IMG/VR virus record: IMGVR_UViG_3300005912_000050
Location: 1 to 24,866 of that record
Strand: one strand, 5' to 3'
Length of the DNA stretch: 24,866 nucleotides
From: a virus
Taxonomy: Duplodnaviria; Caudoviricetes
Numbering within the stretch: position 1 is the first letter of the stretch; each line of letters opens with the position of its first letter. Below are positions 805 through 23,430 of the stretch, piece after piece. A model generated the notes under the pieces. It searched no databases, was not told the origin of the DNA, and worked only from the letters and a program-made list of their open reading frames with translations. The position numbers and the translations under genes are program-made.

Positions 805-2191
805 CGCTGCCCAGGAACTGCTAGACCGCCGCCATGCCCGCCGAGACCTGCTGGCGTTCATCCTATACATGAACCCTGATTACATCGTGTCGCAGTTTGC
901 AATTGATGTGTGCCGCGACCTTGGCCAGTTCTACCTAGATGTAGAGTCGGGCAAGCGGCCCGTGCTGGTGTTTGAAGCGCCGCCGCAGCACGGAAAGTCG
1001 GAGATAGTCAGCCGCAACTATCCCGCATGGTTATTTGGGCAGAACCCTAACCTGTCAATCGGTGGGCTTTCATACGGGTCCGACCTTGCCAGCGACATGA
1101 ACCGCGACATTCAAAAGATTATGATGTCGCCAGCATATGCGCGCCTGTTTCCAAGGTCAGCACTTAACGCCAAGCGCGTGGTGACTGTTGAGATAGAGGC
1201 CAAGCGCAACAGCGAGACATTTGAGATTGTGGGCCATGCGGGCAGATACATCGCGCAGGGCGTGGGTGGTCCTCTAACAGGCAAGCGGCTGGACATTGGC
1301 ATCATTGACGATCCGGTCAAGAACGCTCAAGAGGCCCTATCGCCCGCTACGAAAAAGAGCATCTGGAACTGGTATCAGTCAACGTTCAAAACGCGACTAT
1401 CAAAGAACAGCGGGCAGATAATCATGGCAACGCGCTGGGCGCTTGATGATCTATCTGGGCGCGTACTTGAAGCGGACGTGAGGGCCAAGCGCATTACGTT
1501 CCAAGCAATCAATAAGCATGACGAAGCCCTAGTGCCGGATCTGCACCCGGTAGAAAAGCTGCTAGAGACCAAGGCGGGAATGTCGGAGTTCTTCTGGTCT
1601 GCCTTGTATCAGCAAAACCCTATCACGATTGGCGGCGGCATCTTCAAGGATGAATGGTGGCAGTACATAAGCGCACTGCCTGCGATTGAGTGGCGTGGCA
1701 TATATGCCGACACGGCGCTAAAAACCAAAGAGGCAAACGATTATTCGGTGTTTCAGTGCTGGGGCAAGACACAGAGCGGGCAGGCGGTTTGCCTCGACAT
1801 GATCAGGGGCAAGTGGGAAGCGCCGGAATTGCTGGTGCATGCCCGCGCTTTCTACGCCAAGCATAAGGCCATATTAGGTCTAGGCACGTTGCGCCACATG
1901 AAGGTTGAGGATAAGGCAAGCGGCACGGGCTTGATCCAAACGCTAAAGCGTGAGGGCATCCCGATTCTTGCAATCCCGCGCCATATTGACAAGCTAACGC
2001 GCTCACATGACGCATCCCCTTTAATTCAGAACGGAAACGTGATACTTCTAGAGGGACTGCCACACTTGTCCGACATGCTCGCAGAGGCATCGGCATTCCC
2101 AAACGGATCACATGATGATACGCTCGACCCCATGATGGACGCTGTGGCTGATATTTGTCGCGGATCGACCCAAACTTTCGGAGTGCTGTAG
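788..2191 (+). CDS. terL: Terminase large subunit
   Basis: Walker A PPQHGKSE, Walker B IGIIDDP, coupling motif MATRW, RNase H-like nuclease residues (YADTA, VEDKASG, HDDTLD). ATG at 788 preferred over TTG at 779. Confidence 0.97.
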   Translation: MQSPSDAAQELLDRRHARRDLLAFILYMNPDYIVSQFAIDVCRDLGQFYLDVESGKRPVLVFEAPPQHGKSEIVSRNYPAWLFGQNPNLSIGGLSYGSDLASDMNRDIQKIMMSPAYARLFPRSALNAKRVVTVEIEAKRNSETFEIVGHAGRYIAQGVGGPLTGKRLDIGIIDDPVKNAQEALSPATKKSIWNWYQSTFKTRLSKNSGQIIMATRWALDDLSGRVLEADVRAKRITFQAINKHDEALVPDLHPVEKLLETKAGMSEFFWSALYQQNPITIGGGIFKDEWWQYISALPAIEWRGIYADTALKTKEANDYSVFQCWGKTQSGQAVCLDMIRGKWEAPELLVHARAFYAKHKAILGLGTLRHMKVEDKASGTGLIQTLKREGIPILAIPRHIDKLTRSHDASPLIQNGNVILLEGLPHLSDMLAEASAFPNGSHDDTLDPMMDAVADICRGSTQTFGVL

Positions 2192-3430
2192 ATGTGGCCA
2201 TTTTCCAAACCGCTTGAAGCCAAGGACAACCCTGTCGGCGCTGCCTATATGGTTTCCAGCGGGCCAGTCTGGGCGCGGCAGAGCGGCAAGCGGGCATATG
2301 TGGACGAAGGCTATCAGATGAACGTTATCGTTTATCGAGCCCTTCGAGAGATTGTGCAGGCCGCTGTATCCATCAAAATCGAGCTGCACCAAGGCGACAA
2401 GATCCTCGACACACACCCCGCGCTAGACTTGCTCAAGCGGCCTAACGTGCTGCAATCCTATGGCCAGTGGGTTTCAGAAATGATCGTCAATCGCAACCTG
2501 TTTGGCGAGACGTTTGCCGTTGGAACGGTTGGCCCCAAGTTCGCTGAACTGTGGCCAATGAACCCGCTTGATATGGTGATCAAGCCAAGCACCTACGGCA
2601 TACCATTGGCCTATTGCCATGAGAAGAACAGCAAGGAACAGTATTTCGCCGTTGACCGGATCACGGGCCGAAGCGATGTGTTCTTTCTCAAGATGTATAA
2701 TCCTAACGACTACTGGCGCGGGCAATCTCCCCTCATGGCTGCTGCGCTTGCCGCTGATACTCACAACGCGGGCAGCAAGTGGAACTATTCGCTGCTGCGA
2801 AACAGCGCGCGCCCGTCCGGCCTGATCCGGTTCAAGGGCGGCTATCCTGCGGGCGAGATGATTGCGCGCATGAAGGAATATTTCAAGGACGCGCTTCAAG
2901 GCGCAGACAATAGCGGATCGGTTCCGATGCTTGCCGATGATGCCGAGTTTGTGGAGATGTCCAAGACGCCCGTTGACATGGATTTCCTGAACACCATGCG
3001 TGAGACTGGCAAGTATGTGGCGTCAGCGTTTGGCGTTCCCTTGCCACTGATCGACAACGACGCCTCAACGTTCAACAATTACGAACAGGCCAAGGAACGG
3101 CTCTACACCGATACCGTTATTCCGATGATGCAGGAGTTCATTGGCGCGCTTGGCCACTGGATGCTGCCCGCGTATGGCGACAACCTTGAGTTCAAGCTGG
3201 ACCTTGACAGCATCCCGGCGCTGGAAGGCTTGCGTGAAAAGATGTTCGCGCGGTCCGTGCTGGCGTTTGAAAAGGGCGTGCTGACCCGTCAGGAAAGCCG
3301 GATAATGATGGGCTTTCCAGCTGAGGGTGAGGGCGAGTTTAACCCAGCAATGGCCGCAGGCATGTTTGACCTGCCAGCGGATGAACTCAAGGCGCTTGCT
3401 TATGGGCTTGCTGACCTTGAGCGCAAGTAA
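2192..3430 (+). CDS. Portal protein, HK97 family
   Basis: 412 aa directly after terL; motifs YxxNVIVYRA, GQSPL, NSARPSG, AFGVP, STFNNYEQA. Confidence 0.95.
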   Translation: MWPFSKPLEAKDNPVGAAYMVSSGPVWARQSGKRAYVDEGYQMNVIVYRALREIVQAAVSIKIELHQGDKILDTHPALDLLKRPNVLQSYGQWVSEMIVNRNLFGETFAVGTVGPKFAELWPMNPLDMVIKPSTYGIPLAYCHEKNSKEQYFAVDRITGRSDVFFLKMYNPNDYWRGQSPLMAAALAADTHNAGSKWNYSLLRNSARPSGLIRFKGGYPAGEMIARMKEYFKDALQGADNSGSVPMLADDAEFVEMSKTPVDMDFLNTMRETGKYVASAFGVPLPLIDNDASTFNNYEQAKERLYTDTVIPMMQEFIGALGHWMLPAYGDNLEFKLDLDSIPALEGLREKMFARSVLAFEKGVLTRQESRIMMGFPAEGEGEFNPAMAAGMFDLPADELKALAYGLADLERK

Positions 3431-4229: not shown

Positions 4230-4266
4230 TTTGCAACTTTGCAGAACTGTGCTAGAACTTTGCAAA
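4230..4266 (+). promoter_or_regulatory. Putative late promoter/operator element, copy 1
   Basis: TTTGCAACTTTGCAGAACTGTGCTAGAACTTTGCAAA in the intergenic gap; TTGCAA-N16-TAGAAC with a TGn extension; 31/37 identical to 9114-9150. Confidence 0.75.
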
Positions 4267-6756: not shown

Positions 6757-7395
6757 ATGAGATACAATCGCAAATCCGCCTACATCACCTTATCAAATGA
6801 CAGCCCTGCAATTAGCGCGGCGCTGATGAAGTCGTTTTTGCGCGTTGATGGCGATGGCGACAACGACATCATAGCGGCCTATGTCACAAGCGCGACTGAG
6901 GCGGTAAAGCAATATACCCGCACGGCGATCTTGACCGAGACGTTTGTATTCAAAGCTGATGGCTTTGTGCAGGGCGGCGGTGACGATAGGCTGCTGGCGT
7001 TGGGGCCTGGAGTTCACACCGGATCGCGGCCCTATATTCTGGGCGGCGGTGATACGTTTGACGTAGCATTCCCGCCGCTGCAATCTGTCACAAGCGTGGT
7101 GACGTTTGACCGGGGCAATAATTCACGGACGTTTGACAGCGCAGGCTATCGGGTTGACCTGCAAAGCGGGCGGATCTACCTCAACGAAGGCGTGACGTTC
7201 CCCACTGACATGCGCGCGCAAGACGCGGTGCAGATCACCTATGTTGCGGGCTACGGATCGGGCAGTATTCCCGCGCCGATCCTTGAGGCTATCCGCATGT
7301 ACGTCACGCAGCTTTATGACGGCTGTTCTGGCATGACCAATGAAGCGCGGCATATGCTGGCACCCTATCGGCGCATGGATGAACTGGCGTGGTAG
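6757..7395 (+). CDS. Head-tail connector/adaptor (HK97 gp6 / phiE125 gp8-like)
   Basis: KSFLRVD...DIIAAYVTSATEAV, ITYVAGYG, IPAPILEAI, LAPYRR; expected position. Confidence 0.88.
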   Translation: MRYNRKSAYITLSNDSPAISAALMKSFLRVDGDGDNDIIAAYVTSATEAVKQYTRTAILTETFVFKADGFVQGGGDDRLLALGPGVHTGSRPYILGGGDTFDVAFPPLQSVTSVVTFDRGNNSRTFDSAGYRVDLQSGRIYLNEGVTFPTDMRAQDAVQITYVAGYGSGSIPAPILEAIRMYVTQLYDGCSGMTNEARHMLAPYRRMDELAW

Positions 7396-7739
7396 GCTGT
7401 TGTTCCAAATACAACGCGCGTATGCTTCGGGAGCCTGTCACATTTCAACGCCTGACGCGCACCCCAGACGGCGCAGGCGGCTTTGCTGAGGCATGGGCCG
7501 CTATCACTGGAGCACCTACGCGGGCGATGGTTAAGCCTATGTCTGGTGGGGAGCGCTTCCAGTCTCAGCGCACAGAGGCAACATCTACGCATAAGGTTGT
7601 GGTGCGATACTTCGCAGACCTAACTGAGGTTGACCGTGCCGTTGTGCGTGGGCGCGCGTATCAGGTGCGGTTTATCAACAACGTGGATTTTGACGATAAG
7701 TGGCTTGAAATCAGCGCGGAAGTTGGAGTGGCAACCTAA
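7389..7739 (+). CDS. Head closure protein (SPP1 gp16-like head-tail adaptor)
   Basis: LREPVTFQ...PDGAGG...W, THKVVVRY, GRAYQV; expected position. Confidence 0.88.
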   Translation: MVGCCSKYNARMLREPVTFQRLTRTPDGAGGFAEAWAAITGAPTRAMVKPMSGGERFQSQRTEATSTHKVVVRYFADLTEVDRAVVRGRAYQVRFINNVDFDDKWLEISAEVGVAT

Positions 7740-8164
7740 TGGCCCAAAGTAATATCACTTGCGGCATCGCGTATTTCTTTCAGAACTTTGCGACCGCAGC
7801 TGGGTATGCTAAGAAAAAAGCTGTCAGGGTAACTTGCAAGCCCCTTAATAGTCACGCCAGCAAGGCCGTGTTTCAACACATTCTGAGCGCGAATGCTAAC
7901 TGCAAGTTCTATGGCTTCACTGTCTTGGCATGTTTTCGGTTGCTTTTGCGTCTTGTAAAGCGCGGCAATTTTGCGAAGCCGTTCATCCTCTTGCGCCCGT
8001 GCAGGCGTTTCTTGCAAGTAATCAATCTGGCGGCGAAGTATCTGGCGCACACGTTCGCGGGTTATCCCATTGGCTTGAGCAATGTAATCAAGAGTTTTCC
8101 CCTCAACTCTGGCGGTCATTATTCTGATGTTGCGTTGCGCAGTCTGTCCGTCAATCCGGGCCAT
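7736..8164 (-). CDS. Sigma70 region-4-like HTH fused to an RNA polymerase alpha-CTD-like domain (142 aa)
   Basis: TLDYIAQANGITRERVRQI resembles RpoD region 4.2 (TLEEVGxxFxVTRERIRQI). ELAVSIRAQNVLK...IKGL...FLSIPSCGRKVLKEIRD resembles alpha-CTD (LELTVRSANCLK...IGDL...LLKTPNLGKKSLTEIKD). ATG 8164 with a GGA RBS. Confidence 0.85.
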   Translation of the reverse strand: MARIDGQTAQRNIRIMTARVEGKTLDYIAQANGITRERVRQILRRQIDYLQETPARAQEDERLRKIAALYKTQKQPKTCQDSEAIELAVSIRAQNVLKHGLAGVTIKGLASYPDSFFLSIPSCGRKVLKEIRDAASDITLGH

Positions 8165-8254
8165 AATATTTCCATAAAAATTGATCCTGAAACATACTTG
8201 CATTGCAAGCCCGACAGGTCAACAGTCTTTTGTATTTTTGGGGTGGCGGTATGA
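7739..8254 (+). other. Antisense-overlapping 'bridge' ORF (171 codons); coding status uncertain
   Basis: Starts in TAATG at the head-closure stop (GGAG at 7725-7728) and ends in ATGA at the gp10 start; no recognisable protein features. Confidence 0.3.
8194..8222 (-). promoter_or_regulatory. Putative sigma70-type promoter for the antisense gene, with an overlapping palindrome
   Basis: Minus strand TTGACC (8222-8217), 17-nt spacer, TGc-AAGTAT (8199-8194); palindrome CTTGCA-T-TGCAAG at 8197-8209. Confidence 0.55.
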
Positions 8255-8688
8255 GCCTAGAGCTAAAGATTGAAGGCATGGCAGAGCTTCAGGCCGCGTT
8301 GCGCAGGGCCAGCGCAGAGGCGCAAGAGGCGGTAGGTGTTGCGGTGATAGGCACGGCTATGGAATTGCGCGGCGACATTGTGAAGCGCATTCAGGACGGG
8401 CCAGCAACGGGGCGCATATACGTTCGCGGCGGGGTTGAGCATCAAGCGTCCAGCGGCGAAGCGAAAGAGGCACCAGCGTCAGACACAGGTCGGCTTGCTG
8501 GCAGCGTTATATTCGACAAGACCGGCCCTATGTCTGCAACGGTTGGCAGTGATTTGGTCTATGCGGCTGTCCTTGAATTTGGAAGTGGGCGTATTGATCC
8601 TCGCCCCGCATGGGTCCCAGCGATTGAAAAGATCACGCCAAAATATATTGCCAGACTGGAAAGGGCATTAAGGGGATCGCTCAGATGA
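8251..8688 (+). CDS. HK97 gp10-family neck/tail component
   Basis: IEGMAELQAAL, HQAS...EAPASDTGRLAGS, YAAVLEFGS...PRPAWVPA. Confidence 0.88.
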   Translation: MSLELKIEGMAELQAALRRASAEAQEAVGVAVIGTAMELRGDIVKRIQDGPATGRIYVRGGVEHQASSGEAKEAPASDTGRLAGSVIFDKTGPMSATVGSDLVYAAVLEFGSGRIDPRPAWVPAIEKITPKYIARLERALRGSLR

Positions 8689-9110
8689 CGGCACCAACAT
8701 GGGGCAACCTGCGGCAAGCGCTATACACGCGGCTTGATGCGCAGCTAACGGCTGATGTGTGGTCGCCAAAAGCCCCGCAAAATTCAGAGGGCGAAATCAA
8801 CACGCCGTTTCCTTATGTCGTGATTGTTCAGGCTACGGAATCGCCGTTCAACACGTCCGGCACGCGCGGTTCGCAATTCGTGGTGCAGATTGACGGATAC
8901 GCGAGATCCACAGCGGGCCAATCCAGCGAACAGGCTATTGCGGCGCTATCATCGCAAGTTCGGGACGCGCTGGAGTGGTACGGCCTGACCGGAACGGGCA
9001 TCGTGTGGGTGGACACGGAGTTTGAAACTATGTCACTTGGCTGGTCTGATGATGGAAACACGCGGCGTTTTGTTTCGCTATACCGCGTGACCCTTGACGA
9101 AGTAGCATAG
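8685..9110 (+). CDS. Tail terminator/completion protein (DUF3168-like)
   Basis: LRQALYTRL, PFPYVVI, VQIDGYAR; ATGA overlap; directly upstream of the tail tube gene. Confidence 0.8.
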   Translation: MTAPTWGNLRQALYTRLDAQLTADVWSPKAPQNSEGEINTPFPYVVIVQATESPFNTSGTRGSQFVVQIDGYARSTAGQSSEQAIAALSSQVRDALEWYGLTGTGIVWVDTEFETMSLGWSDDGNTRRFVSLYRVTLDEVA

Positions 9111-9113
9111 CAC

Positions 9114-9150
9114 TTTGCAACTTTGCAAAACCGTGATATGAGTTTGCAAA
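9114..9150 (+). promoter_or_regulatory. Putative late promoter/operator element, copy 2
   Basis: TTTGCAACTTTGCAAAACCGTGATATGAGTTTGCAAA; TTGCAA-N16-TATGAG with a TGn extension; 31/37 identical to 4230-4266. Confidence 0.75.
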
Positions 9151-15828: not shown

Positions 15829-16187
15829 GCGATAGAGAAGAACAGCTAAAGCGAGACATTCGGGACCTGCAAGCCAAGCTTGCGCAGGCAATTCGTCCGC
15901 GTGATAAGATCGTAGAGGTTCCCGTAGAGGTCATTCGCTACGTTAATAAGATCGTGGAGGTTCCCGTAGAGGCAATTCGCTACGTTGATAAGATCGTAAA
16001 GGTTCCCGTAGAGGCCATTCGCTACGTTGACAAGATCGTAGAGGTTGAACGGGTCAAAGAGGTTAATTTCATGGTAGAGGTTATTCAGACCAACACGGTT
16101 GACCGCCCCTGCAAAATTCAGGCTGCAAGAATTGCAGAGCTTGAATCTCAACTATCAATCATGGAGCGAGAATGCCAAGCCCTGTAA
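15825..16187 (+). CDS. Coiled-coil protein with DKIVEVPVEAIRYV repeats
   Basis: ATGA overlap; heptad-like termini flank ~3.4 copies of a 14-aa Val/Pro/charged repeat. Confidence 0.7.
   Translation: MSDREEQLKRDIRDLQAKLAQAIRPRDKIVEVPVEVIRYVNKIVEVPVEAIRYVDKIVKVPVEAIRYVDKIVEVERVKEVNFMVEVIQTNTVDRPCKIQAARIAELESQLSIMERECQAL
15903..16046 (+). repeat. 42-bp in-frame tandem repeat, ~3.4 copies
   Basis: Units at 15903, 15945, 15987 and a partial one at 16029; consensus GATAAGATCGTAGAGGTTCCCGTAGAGGCNATTCGCTACGTT. Confidence 0.95.
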
Positions 16188-16651
16188 TCTCTAACCAAAT
16201 GGTGATATCTGACGCTTTGCGCGGCCTAGTGTATTGCCTAACGTTTAAACGCAACGACGAGCGGGCAATCCGCGCCAAATTTAGAATGGAGTGCGGTCCC
16301 ATGGCCAAGGTTGAAACGGGTCAAGTTGATTGGCCGCGAAAAAATGACGGAAGAATTGTCATTAATTTTGTAAACGTTGAAGGCCGCCCCATTGATGTTT
16401 CGGGGGCAAACGAAATAACCTTTACAATTGCTGAGTCAACAAAAGGCCCGTCTCTTATCACAAAAACATTAAGCTCCGGTCAGATCACACTGGCCACTAA
16501 CAGCCAAGGGTTCACTTTGATAACCGACACAGAAACAAACTTGACTCCAAAAAAATACTATTACGAGTGCCGGATAACCAACGCCGATGCACAATTTCAA
16601 ACTGTTGCTGCAGGCGCGTTTGTTATTCAAGACACACTTATTGGGGTTTAA
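16172..16651 (+). CDS. BppU N-terminal-like Ig-fold protein (putative fibre attachment)
   Basis: PIDVSGA..ITFTI...YYYECRIT...GAFVI pattern. Two GGAG-preceded starts (16172 and 16301); the recognisable domain begins after 16301. Confidence 0.6.
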   Translation: MPSPVISNQMVISDALRGLVYCLTFKRNDERAIRAKFRMECGPMAKVETGQVDWPRKNDGRIVINFVNVEGRPIDVSGANEITFTIAESTKGPSLITKTLSSGQITLATNSQGFTLITDTETNLTPKKYYYECRITNADAQFQTVAAGAFVIQDTLIGV

Positions 16652-16903
16652 GCTATGCCACTTGGTTCATTTAACGCTACAATCGTAAACACGGCAGGCG
16701 ACGTTGTGCCAAATGCGCAAGTCCAAGTCCGGCGCACGTCAGACAATGGCCTTGCGACTCTGTTTTCTAACGCGGCTGGGACTGCAATGGCCAACCCGTT
16801 TAACGCTGACGGGACTACTGCGTTTGCCCAGTTCTTTGCAGAGCGGGGGACGTATACAGTTGCAGCGTCAACGGGGTCGGGGACTGTCACTTGGACAGTA
16901 GAC
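16613..16903 (+). repeat. 291-bp imperfect direct repeat, copy 1
   Basis: Aligns without gaps (offset 1198) to 17811-18101; covers the last 12 codons and stop of the upstream gene plus the first 83 codons of RBP1. Confidence 0.93.
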
Positions 16904-17458
16904 GTTGTATCTGCGTTTGAGCCGCCACTTACTAGAGAAATTGCAAACGGATCTGCGGCGGCGCCGTCCATAGCGTTTGCGTCTGACCCAAACACGGGGT
17001 TCTACCGCATTGGCGCGGATCAACTAGGGCTGGCTGAGGGCGGTGTTGATCGCGGGCGCCTCTATGCTCGCAAAAACATTCTCGGGACGGTTAGCCAGAC
17101 GGCTGGCGTTCCGACCGGGGCGGCATTTGAAAGCGGCACTAACGCAAACGGCACGTATGTGAGGTTTGCGGACGGCACGCAGATGTGCAGATTGAGAAAT
17201 ACCTCCAACCAGTCAATCGCGAAAGACGCGACGCAAGATTTCACGTGGACCTATCCCGCTGCATTTATCAGTGCGATTGATGTCCACATTGACTTTACAG
17301 CGCAACGGGCGTCCGTGGCAAACGGGTCTATTCCGGCCTTGTCAATGGCGACCTACCGGGACTCTATGTCTACCACGCAGGCGTCTTTTGGTTTGACCAA
17401 CCTTAATAGCGTTAGCTCTTTTCTTTACACAGTGACCGCGCGCGGGCGGTGGTTCTAA
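16655..17458 (+). CDS. Tail fibre/receptor-binding protein 1
   Basis: Shared N-terminal anchor; GSAAAPSIAFASDPNTGFY fibre motif; C-terminal NANGTYVRFADGTQMC...WTYPAAF...ARGRWF (gp53-like receptor-binding domain). Confidence 0.85.
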   Translation: MPLGSFNATIVNTAGDVVPNAQVQVRRTSDNGLATLFSNAAGTAMANPFNADGTTAFAQFFAERGTYTVAASTGSGTVTWTVDVVSAFEPPLTREIANGSAAAPSIAFASDPNTGFYRIGADQLGLAEGGVDRGRLYARKNILGTVSQTAGVPTGAAFESGTNANGTYVRFADGTQMCRLRNTSNQSIAKDATQDFTWTYPAAFISAIDVHIDFTAQRASVANGSIPALSMATYRDSMSTTQASFGLTNLNSVSSFLYTVTARGRWF

Positions 17459-17787: not shown

Positions 17788-17849
17788 GCAATATCAGCTC
17801 GAGCAAGGTTGGCGCGTTTGTTATTCAAGATACACTTATCGGAGTTTAA
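17784..17849 (+). CDS. 21-aa mini-ORF MSNISSSKVGAFVIQDTLIGV
   Basis: ATGA overlap with the upstream stop; its last 12 aa are identical to the C-terminus of 16172-16651; stops 3 nt before the RBP2 start. Confidence 0.45.
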   Translation: MSNISSSKVGAFVIQDTLIGV

Positions 17850-18101
17850 GGCATGGCCCTTGGTTCATTTAATGCAACGATTGTAGACGCGGCTGGGGAC
17901 GTTGTGCCGGGCGCTGAAGTTGAGGTCCGGCGCGCGTCAGATGGCGCGCTGGCGACTCTGTTTTCTGATGTATCGCGCACCGCAATTACAAACCCGTTTA
18001 ACGCTGACGCGACTACTGCGTTTGTCCAATTCTTTGCAGAGCGGGACACTTACACCGTGGCAGCGTCAACGGGGTCGGGGACCGTCACTTGGACTGTGGA
18101 C
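17811..18101 (+). repeat. 291-bp imperfect direct repeat, copy 2
   Basis: Counterpart of 16613-16903. Confidence 0.93.
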
Positions 18102-19910
18102 ATTACGCCGTCCAATGACGGGGCAACATACGCACCAACGCGGGCCGAGGCGCTGCTGCTGAATGTGCCAGATGCTCAGGATATTCTATTTGTTCGTAGC
18201 GGTGTTGGGTTGCTGGCGTACAAGCGCGACGCTTCAAGCTCGGCGCTAACCACAGCAGACGGGCAAAGATGGGCGCCTGACGGTGACGTGTACCCCGATC
18301 ACTGGGCGGCGAACACAACCCCCGGCACGACAGACATGCAAGCAGCGCTTGTGGGCTCTGTGGCTTACTGCTTTATTGCAGGCCGGTCCTTGCGCGGCGG
18401 TGGTCAATACTTGGCCACGGGAAACGTGCCGAACCTGTGGGATGTTACAACTAACGGGACGTGGAGCATCCTTCAAGATGGCTCCACGTGGCACGCAAAC
18501 CCTAAAGGCAACTCACAACTGGTTGTGATTTACTGCACTAACGATGGAAGCGCGCAAGCGGACGGGAGAACAGCAGCACAAGGCACCACGTTTGGATCCG
18601 CATGGGCGCGCATGCTTGCACTGGGTAGCAAGTCGGCGGATGGGCGCTGGAGAATTCAAATGGAGGCCGGAACATTTACCGATGCGGGGATTGTGATCAG
18701 CAAGGTGCCGTACTTCAGGTATCCACTTGAGGTTTTCGGTCGTTCTGCCGGGGGGCTGGGCGCGGTGCCTGAAACTGTTTGGAGCGGGACAGGCAACGCA
18801 ACCTACGCGGCAATGCGCGGCGGTCTCAGCAATTCTGAAAACGGGTTTCTAAACATAGGTTTTCAGAGCATCAAATTTGCCAATTGGTCGCAAAATGGGA
18901 TTGTTTATTGGTACGGCGGAAATGTGACGTGTAGGAACCTTCACGCAGCGAATACGCCATACCCCTTCGATTTTCGAGGGCTTCGCCTGGATATAAAGGG
19001 CGGGATTATTGACGGAGCAACAGGTGGCATTCGCTCTTACTACGGATGCAACTCCAACATTGGCGGGTTTGGGGCTAACGAGCGCATCACGTTTAACAAC
19101 TGTGAGGTGCCTTGGTCTGTCTCGCGCGGTGGGATTGCATACGTAGAAAATTGCTTGCACACCGGAACAATGACCCATAACGGCGCGGTCAGTCAATCGG
19201 CGAGGATAAGAACGCAGGGGAACACGTTTCGGGCGTCAACGTCTGAAATCATCCTCGTAGAAAACGGCATCTGGGATCAGGCGAAAGACGACGCATCGGC
19301 TGACGTTTTCCCAACTTTAACAGAAACTATGAGTGCTTACACTGCTCGCGGAACGGCATCCATTCAAGGGCTATCCGTCTTGGGCAGCAGGTTCATGCAC
19401 GTCAGGTCAGGCAGAACGGGTGGGACTAATCAGTTCACTGTGGACACTGTGGGTGGCGTCGCGTCCCTCCTGTCCGATGGATCGCTTGGCGGCGCGGACT
19501 GGGTGCCGTTTCGTCTGCCTAAATTCACACTGTTCAGCCCGACTTTTATTCTCGAGGTTGACGCGGAATTTACACTGGCAGAAGCACACTCGGGCGGGGT
19601 TTTTACTCTCCACGGTAACGGCGCGCCGAGCGCCGCCAATCTACTAGGCGTTGTAAACATTCCGTCTGTAGCAGGGTTCACACGCGGGACTATAAAGCTG
19701 CGCGTGATAAATGATCCGGGCGTTTCAGCAGGTTCTTACGAAGGGGTCTGGACCGCTGCGGGGGGCCTTAGCACTGGCTCAACTGCCAACTTGGCATCTA
19801 CTTCATTGCGGGATAATGACGCGTCGGGGTATCTTTTCAGACTGTACTGGACGCCTGCCTCAGCAGGTGACGCGGTGTTTTCAAACCTAATTACATACGT
19901 GACATTGTAG
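17853..19910 (+). CDS. Tailspike/receptor-binding protein 2, probable right-handed beta-helix depolymerase
   Basis: Same N-terminal anchor as RBP1; TPGTTDMQAAL tailspike neck motif; Gly/Asn-rich beta-helix-like central region; beta-sandwich-like C-terminus. Confidence 0.8.
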   Translation: MALGSFNATIVDAAGDVVPGAEVEVRRASDGALATLFSDVSRTAITNPFNADATTAFVQFFAERDTYTVAASTGSGTVTWTVDITPSNDGATYAPTRAEALLLNVPDAQDILFVRSGVGLLAYKRDASSSALTTADGQRWAPDGDVYPDHWAANTTPGTTDMQAALVGSVAYCFIAGRSLRGGGQYLATGNVPNLWDVTTNGTWSILQDGSTWHANPKGNSQLVVIYCTNDGSAQADGRTAAQGTTFGSAWARMLALGSKSADGRWRIQMEAGTFTDAGIVISKVPYFRYPLEVFGRSAGGLGAVPETVWSGTGNATYAAMRGGLSNSENGFLNIGFQSIKFANWSQNGIVYWYGGNVTCRNLHAANTPYPFDFRGLRLDIKGGIIDGATGGIRSYYGCNSNIGGFGANERITFNNCEVPWSVSRGGIAYVENCLHTGTMTHNGAVSQSARIRTQGNTFRASTSEIILVENGIWDQAKDDASADVFPTLTETMSAYTARGTASIQGLSVLGSRFMHVRSGRTGGTNQFTVDTVGGVASLLSDGSLGGADWVPFRLPKFTLFSPTFILEVDAEFTLAEAHSGGVFTLHGNGAPSAANLLGVVNIPSVAGFTRGTIKLRVINDPGVSAGSYEGVWTAAGGLSTGSTANLASTSLRDNDASGYLFRLYWTPASAGDAVFSNLITYVTL

Positions 19911-23213: not shown

Positions 23214-23402
23214 CGCCTCTGCCTCCTGTGGCGTGGGGGTTATGGTGATTGTCTCTTGGGCGCCGGGGAATTGCTTTAGACCCTCGCAAAGCTTTGCCGC
23301 GCAGGCATTGCAGATTGGGCCTGTGCTATTGTACCCGCTGGCCTTGTTTACCCATGATATTGATATTGTTTTGTCGGGGTGGTCGCAAAATGAAATAACC
23401 AT
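23199..23402 (-). CDS. Small hypothetical protein (67 aa, Cys/His-containing)
   Basis: AGGAG RBS then ATG 23402; CDH...CNAC; overlaps the convergent gene end by 15 nt. Confidence 0.55.
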   Translation of the reverse strand: MVISFCDHPDKTISISWVNKASGYNSTGPICNACAAKLCEGLKQFPGAQETITITPTPQEAEALIPL

Positions 23403-23430
23403 TATTCTGACTCCTGTGGCGTGGGGGTTA
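23223..23430. repeat. Perfect 20-bp direct repeat pair
   Basis: CTCCTGTGGCGTGGGGGTTA at 23223-23242 and 23411-23430. Confidence 0.92.

Follow-up and report, generated by a model that had tools for sequence, protein, structure and literature searches.

Why should a tailed phage carry, between two genes of its neck module, a single gene that is read against the direction of the late operon and whose product resembles parts of the host RNA polymerase? The DNA analysed here (the window, 24,866 nt) is filled by the late region of such a phage, with genes for terminase, portal, protease, capsid, neck, tail tube, tape measure, fibres and amidase, and the ORF map together with Pfam and PHROG matches places all its late genes on the plus strand. 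The same phage, in permuted form, is represented by a 37,674-nt record (G001, 99% complete), whose other half contains Sak4-like, SSB, RecE-like, helicase and primase genes as well as a small gene for an HTH protein; among 59 ORFs scanned (29 in that half and 30 in the window) there was no integrase. The sequencing runs richest in the window's DNA are salt-lake metagenomes, with at least half of its words present in six of the 24 listed runs (five being possible sources), and no RNA run is among the listed runs with the window's words. No cultured phage was found at 60% identity for the capsid or the primase. A first-pass annotation had described the antisense gene as the only convincing minus-strand gene, which fits the ORF map, on a scan of some of its minus-strand ORFs. 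The gene and its neighbours are:

7389 to 7739, plus strand: head closure protein Hc1 (PF05521, phrog_25)
7736 to 8164, minus strand: gene for a 142-aa protein with a sigma4-like HTH, a long helix and an alpha-CTD (ORF, Pfam, family profile and structure model)
8251 to 8688, plus strand: Neck1, an HK97 gp10-like protein (PF04883, phrog_5)

Read from its first ATG the minus-strand ORF spans 7736-8203 and encodes 155 aa, while the form in the protein collection has 142 aa and starts at the ATG at 8164. The longer form was set aside because its start lies inside the candidate promoter described below, and both the collection's call and the family alignment favour the shorter one; residue numbers follow the 142-aa form and agree with the numbering of the first-pass annotation. 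The domains are arranged as follows:

8024 to 8110, minus strand: Sigma70_r4 match, residues 19-47, with the recognition helix at residues 35-42 (Pfam)
7949 to 8059, minus strand: continuous helix, residues 36-72, the recognition helix extending into the linker (AlphaFold2 prediction)
7763 to 7915, minus strand: alpha-CTD-like domain, residues 84-134 (Pfam, family profile and alignment to solved alpha-CTDs)

The proposed recognition helix of sigma region 4.2 is borne out, as Sigma70_r4 (PF04545) matches the 142-aa protein with 25.6 bits against a cut-off of 24.1 and the motif TRERVRQI occupies residues 35-42. The alpha-CTD with its retained contact residues stands in part. R92, N95, G124 and K126 fall on the conserved R, N, G and K in the alignment to solved alpha-CTDs, which correspond to E. 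coli residues 265, 268, 296 and 298 of the '265 determinant'. However, RNA_pol_A_CTD (PF03118) scores 19.9 bits for the protein alone, below the cut-off of 23.8, and the window allele has S122 and V127 at the equivalents of N294 and S299, so that the set of DNA contacts is incompletely kept. The absence of sigma2 and alpha-NTD also holds: sigma region 2 has no match in the 142-aa protein and every NCBIfam sigma model is far below its cut-off, PF01000 and PF01193 are not matched, and the rpoA models reach 17-23 bits against cut-offs of 228-406. The protein matched no PHROG family.

A full HMMER search found 87 proteins at E<=0.001, of which 23 matching over the query's length in one stretch were aligned with the query, while the other 63 were left out. 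RNA_pol_A_CTD is matched by all 24 aligned rows and Sigma70_r4 by 18 (E<=0.001), and the profile built from this alignment finds the B. subtilis alpha-CTD 3gfk (E 6.6e-20) and SigA 7ckq (E 6e-10) among solved structures; a profile match of the C-terminal half to alpha-CTD, which the annotation had named as one test of its reading, is found throughout the family. Atlas neighbour clusters, viral and bacterial and of 121-137 aa, carry one or both Pfam families, which makes the architecture a family and no one-off, and the possibility, raised in the annotation, that similar architectures exist in databases is borne out (23 full-length relatives and several Atlas clusters). Sequence comparison thus confirms that the antisense gene is real, that its two-domain anatomy is correct and that it belongs to an uncharacterised family; a literature search that covered few subscription papers found neither a characterised sigma4/alpha-CTD fusion nor a stop-free frame of the kind described below. 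The word-index homologue search recovered only the antisense protein itself, and tblastn against cultured phages gave no match. A supposed homologue in locus L004 lies within a methyltransferase-like ORF and was rejected as a chance match. No further neck-module cassette turned up when viral contigs were scanned by pattern, and in the loci so recovered both domains were found by profile only in the window copies and in L050. In L063 and L066 a 192-aa protein (2047-2625, minus strand) resembles by eye an HTH, a degenerate alpha-CTD and a second HTH; the first HTH alone scored, and the alpha-CTD profile missed it. The tree of the 24 rows is mostly poorly resolved; P0002 and P0003 group together (94/91), and a clade uniting this group with P0004 is neither supported nor rejected (p-AU 0.39).

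The most constant residues in the HTH are R38 and R40 (each in 23 of the 24 rows), followed by Q41 (18) and E37 (16), and in the alpha-CTD R92 and G124 (24 each), K126 (21) and N95 (19). At column 122, where the window protein has S, 17 of the 24 rows have N, and at column 127, where it has V, 14 have S. Judged from the alignment, the conserved columns of the family are the DNA-facing positions. Of four variants listed (of eight differences) in runs X8 and X9, three are synonymous in the antisense frame and the fourth is S122N, the family consensus, which we take as a sign of selection on the minus-strand protein. The distance from R40 to R92 varies from 38 to 68 residues in the family, and this, together with a pTM of 0.51, does not imply a fixed -35/UP geometry. 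A heptad test on the linkers gave p<=0.05 in only five of the 24 rows, the window protein not among them, and dimerisation is therefore unsupported.

The AlphaFold2 model from the 24-row alignment (mean pLDDT 91.9) has predicted helices at residues 6-20 and 25-32 and a long one at 36-72, followed by a linker predicted with low confidence and by four helices that form the C-terminal domain; a single-sequence fold was discarded (pLDDT 50). In this predicted monomer there is no sigma-type fold-back helix after the recognition helix, which weakens the suggestion of the first-pass annotation that the protein might occupy the beta-flap. As a sigma4 mimic on the core flap it could act as an anti-sigma factor or redirect the polymerase, and Sigma70_r4 above its cut-off and a phmmer match to SigA that reaches a proline-containing stretch beyond the recognition helix agree with such a role. 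The flap pocket requires both ends of sigma region 4. The one predicted helix from 36 to 72, the merely 4-19 residues before R11 across the family and the absence of the proline from the conserved columns all argue against flap binding, which we consider very unlikely.

Compared with known proteins, the N-terminal part is similar to sigma70 region 4.2 (PF04545; SigA/RpoD) in its score above the cut-off and its primary-sigma-type helix RERVRQ, while it differs from sigma70 factors in having no regions 1-3, a short loop, a predicted 37-residue helix and no fold-back end. The C-terminal part is similar to RNA polymerase alpha-CTD (PF03118; PDB 3gfk, 1z3e, 9zum) in the family profile match, the retained R, N, G and K and the predicted four-helix domain. 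Unlike RNA polymerase alpha, however, the window protein is joined to an HTH and, having no alpha-NTD, is not tethered to the core, and S122 and V127 occupy two usual contact positions. KorA/TrfB and Mu Mor/C, regulators in which an HTH is combined with a long helix, have an HTH layout similar to that of the antisense protein. A weak Pfam KORA match (E 0.01; 16.5 bits against a cut-off of 26.7) and a neighbouring Atlas cluster, 41% of whose members contain Mor, recall these regulators, but they carry no alpha-CTD, and neither is among the families shared by the 24-row alignment. Among the sigma-domain proteins of phages, single-domain proteins, mostly sigma4, are the commonest class (bioRxiv 10.64898/2026.10.08.757525); that study tests no function of these sigma4-only proteins, and the terms 'CTD' and 'alpha subunit' do not occur in its main text, while its supplements may list fusions.

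Phages fuse alpha-CTD to many unrelated partners, including proteins of the cultured Ruegeria phage V16 (gp23), Roseobacter phage CRP-701 (gp9) and Bacillus phage Goe8 (c00050). These score above the cut-off for PF03118 but have no Sigma70_r4 and other partners, are co-oriented with their neighbours and have closed in-register antisense frames. The alpha-CTD of V16 gp23 (L047, 2923-3789) is N-terminal and the RefSeq annotation is pyrophosphatase; in four loci of GC-rich phages (L130, L133, L139 and L142) a 202-aa alpha-CTD-containing ORF directly follows a gene resembling the terminase large subunit. The breadth of such fusions is one reason to consider that the alpha-CTD and sigma4 surfaces serve as a decoy, which would titrate away activators of the host, or other factors that bind alpha-CTD, and damp stress or defence responses, DNA binding being secondary; another is the basic residues after the recognition helix (R or K at 45 in 17 and R at 48 in 13 of the 24 rows). 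Yet it is DNA-facing residues that are invariant, and the family varies at the acidic '261' and '287' activator patches, whose positions are I85/A88 and P113/S115/F116 here. Such a decoy is thus an unlikely main function, if a conceivable one.

The claim that the gene interrupts two normally adjacent neck genes is upheld by 39 head-closure loci, in 34 of which Neck1 is also present: 31 of these show direct overlap of the two genes, and the three with a gap are window copies. Relative to the empty allele the cassette is delimited as:

7725 to 8239, no strand assigned: 515-nt insert (locus comparison; joint from 7724 to 8240)

The joint from 7724 to 8240, bypassing these 515 nt, was found in contigs from three of four DNA runs, and runs X1 and X8 contain both the filled and the empty form. 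A near-identical cassette is present in X8 and X9 with 20 and 12 loose letters differing from the window's flanks, and this short evidence suggests that the cassette moves between neck backgrounds. The ends of the insert bear an imperfect repeat of the 3' end of the head-closure gene, and the GC content of the insert is 0.48 against 0.56. Two complete related genomes, G002 (which covers 18,563 nt of G001 at 89.7% identity) and G003, contain neither domain, whereas G001, used as the positive control, scores. To the annotation's question whether related phages lack the gene at this site the answer is that most do, and the comparison of loci and genomes shows the gene to be dispensable. In being a discrete insert of lower GC with its own candidate promoter, missing from relatives at the same site, the cassette is like phage morons, the accessory genes of late operons. 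It differs from these, and from ordinary stop-start coupling, in being antisense, in having no significant terminator (two were found against 1.6 expected) and in being spanned by a coupled stop-free frame. As regards expression from a prophage (lysogenic conversion), the phage shows no integrase among the 59 ORFs scanned.

The genomic context could be read for three of the 24 aligned members, the window, L069 and L077, and in all three the gene is antisense within the neck module. The best homologue (43% identical), in L069, is antisense between head closure and Neck1, and L074 represents the corresponding empty allele, with a head closure protein 94% identical. The second (37% identical), in L077, is antisense between the adaptor Ad1 and head closure Hc1. 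Of 35 loci checked for this junction, 27 have it closed and eight could not be scored. That the two closest homologues are likewise antisense inside neck modules is new here. The 3' end of the L077 regulator overlaps that of the adaptor by 31 nt. The whole L077 locus, on a contig from a Verrucomicrobiales bin, consists of a phage module spanning head, neck and tail, in which a capsid fragment is 85% identical to the window's; this may reflect either a host link or mis-binning. Its label was set aside as host evidence, L077 being a metagenome-bin contig with a phage module.

Overlooked in the first-pass annotation is an open frame on the late strand opposite the gene:

7739 to 8254, plus strand: 'bridge' frame of 171 codons without a stop, sharing the register of the antisense gene (ORF map; codon statistics)

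The start ATG of the bridge overlaps the head-closure stop and its end overlaps the Neck1 ATG. The same holds in all three loci (171, 198 and 171 codons), where the frame starts on the stop of the upstream gene and ends on the ATG of the downstream one; target-site duplication may be a partial source of these overlaps. Among the 36 Leu and 23 Ser codons of the three antisense genes TTA, CTA and TCA are never used, against 17% use in the long ORFs of G001-G003. By chance the frame would be open with probabilities of 0.028, 0.034 and 0.016 for the three genes and 0.13, 0.077 and 0.31 for the parts outside them, which are not fully independent since the three frames, in three contexts only, share ancestry. 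Background blocks of 142 codons were open in five of 107 cases. Of 30 other alpha-CTD-matching ORFs (the three window copies dropped, some near-duplicates kept) four were open in register, all with GC3>=0.62, and none of the 19 with GC3<=0.55 was open, while the GC3 of the three cassettes is 0.47-0.53.

One explanation for the open frame is that it encodes a functional protein, such as a partner or inhibitor of the antisense protein or a virion component, and its being open and coupled in three of three loci over 171-198 codons would fit this. The bridge peptide, however, has no Pfam or PHROG match, and the aligned identities between the three peptides (28/95, 12/43 and 31/120) are low compared with those of the antisense proteins (55/122, 45/125 and 45/120). 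Moreover, three of the four variants listed in X8 and X9 change the peptide, none introducing a stop. A functional bridge protein is in consequence improbable, and selection looks to act on the openness of the frame and not on the peptide sequence. On general grounds a stop-free coupled frame would keep translational coupling and avoid polarity. The bridge is thus likely to let ribosomes cross the insert, so that the neighbouring virion genes remain coupled; no clear Rho-loading signal was seen (C against G on the late strand of the insert 0.24/0.24). What is new, as far as these comparisons indicate, is a cassette placed antisense in the neck module and spanned by a stop-free bridge that looks to be under selection. 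Such a bridge would be a statistically supported case of a frame held open apparently for ribosome traffic, could explain how antisense genes enter tightly coupled operons, and is a warning for annotators that long antisense ORFs may be selected without being protein genes.

Upstream of the antisense gene two candidate regulatory elements were found:

8194 to 8222, minus strand: candidate promoter of sigma70 type, TTGACC (8222-8217), 17 nt, AAGTAT, immediately preceded by an A-rich tract (inferred from sequence)
8197 to 8209, no strand assigned: palindrome of 13 bp whose half-sites resemble a -35 element and which overlaps the spacer and -10 of the promoter, a candidate operator (sequence; CTTG-N5-CAAG likewise in L069)

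The proposal that the gene has a promoter of its own is only partly sustained. The candidate TTGACC-17-AAGTAT has a consensus score of 8/12 and its region aligns ungapped with the upstream region of L069 (1 of 3000 shuffles as high), but a consensus promoter scan gave no sites in 7300-8800. The L077 upstream region shows no significant similarity (2861 and 647 of 3000 shuffles) and no evident palindrome. When the promoter pattern common to the window and L069 was used for a scan, 22 loci matched, the three window copies and 19 without the gene. Copies of CTTG-N5-CAAG are not enriched in G001, G002 and G003 (2, 2 and 3), and hence no regulon is seen. The antisense position inside the late operon in three of three known contexts, and the candidate operator over the gene's own promoter in two of the three, could also mean that antisense transcription, tuning the timing of the late genes, is the main output of the cassette, with the protein merely autoregulating that promoter. 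This is unlikely, as two different junctions are in use, the cassette is absent from most relatives and simple autorepression needs no alpha-CTD.

The annotation had also proposed that the protein might regulate the phage's own promoters. A 37-nt intergenic repeat (84% identical; 4230-4266 and 9114-9150, plus strand) lies ahead of the protease and tail tube genes. It contains three TTTGCA boxes whose spacing is fixed, and is likely a late promoter of this phage group. The antisense protein might activate or read it, since the TTTGCA boxes resemble the half-sites of the palindrome upstream of its own gene. However, the motif is matched in 30 of 46 loci, many without the gene, and G002 and G003, neither of which has the gene, contain the motif three times each; with the repeat kept in such relatives the antisense protein is not its required reader, and a role at the late promoters, weakened accordingly, is scarcely probable.

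Promoter occlusion and self-regulation, by comparison, are plausible, and the reading that we prefer, although we regard it as evenly poised between right and wrong, is that the cassette encodes a DNA-binding regulator of -35-like sites and an adjoining A/T tract, which represses its own and host-type promoters while the bridge protects the late operon. Early in infection the host sigma70 holoenzyme would transcribe the antisense gene from TTGACC-17-AAGTAT. The RERVRQ helix would read TTGAC/TTGCA half-sites and the alpha-CTD grip the adjoining minor groove, and two molecules bound to the inverted half-sites that cover the spacer and -10 of its own promoter would feed back negatively, limiting antisense transcription into the late operon, while surplus protein would occlude strong host promoters. 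In the late phase, ribosomes that have finished the upstream neck gene would reinitiate on the bridge and pass on to the neck gene that follows, which would keep coupling and avoid polarity, with the bridge peptide probably a by-product. More tentatively, and possible rather than probable, an aquatic phage lineage may trade a junction-hopping cassette selected on both strands, one encoding a single-chain copy of the polymerase's -35/UP reader that shuts off host-type promoters (and perhaps those of co-infecting relatives) and the other serving as a cost-free ribosome bridge. If this is true, the bridge would let the cassette enter any coupled virion-operon junction at no cost. A -35 reader fused to a reader of UP elements would be an undescribed phage route to host transcription, and the fusion a compact natural model on which the holoenzyme's upstream half could be tested.

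Three further repeats occur in the tail region and beyond. A 42-nt tandem repeat (15886-16046, plus strand) lies inside a 120-aa ORF among the tail genes, which has a Pfam IMCp match of 29.6 bits, above the cut-off. A 294-nt repeat (81%; 16613-16906 and 17811-18104, plus strand) forms the starts of two ORFs of the tail-fibre region (267 and 685 aa) and is a possible fibre-exchange module. A 25-nt repeat (96%; 23218-23242 and 23406-23430) is located close to a flip in GC skew and a change of coding strand.
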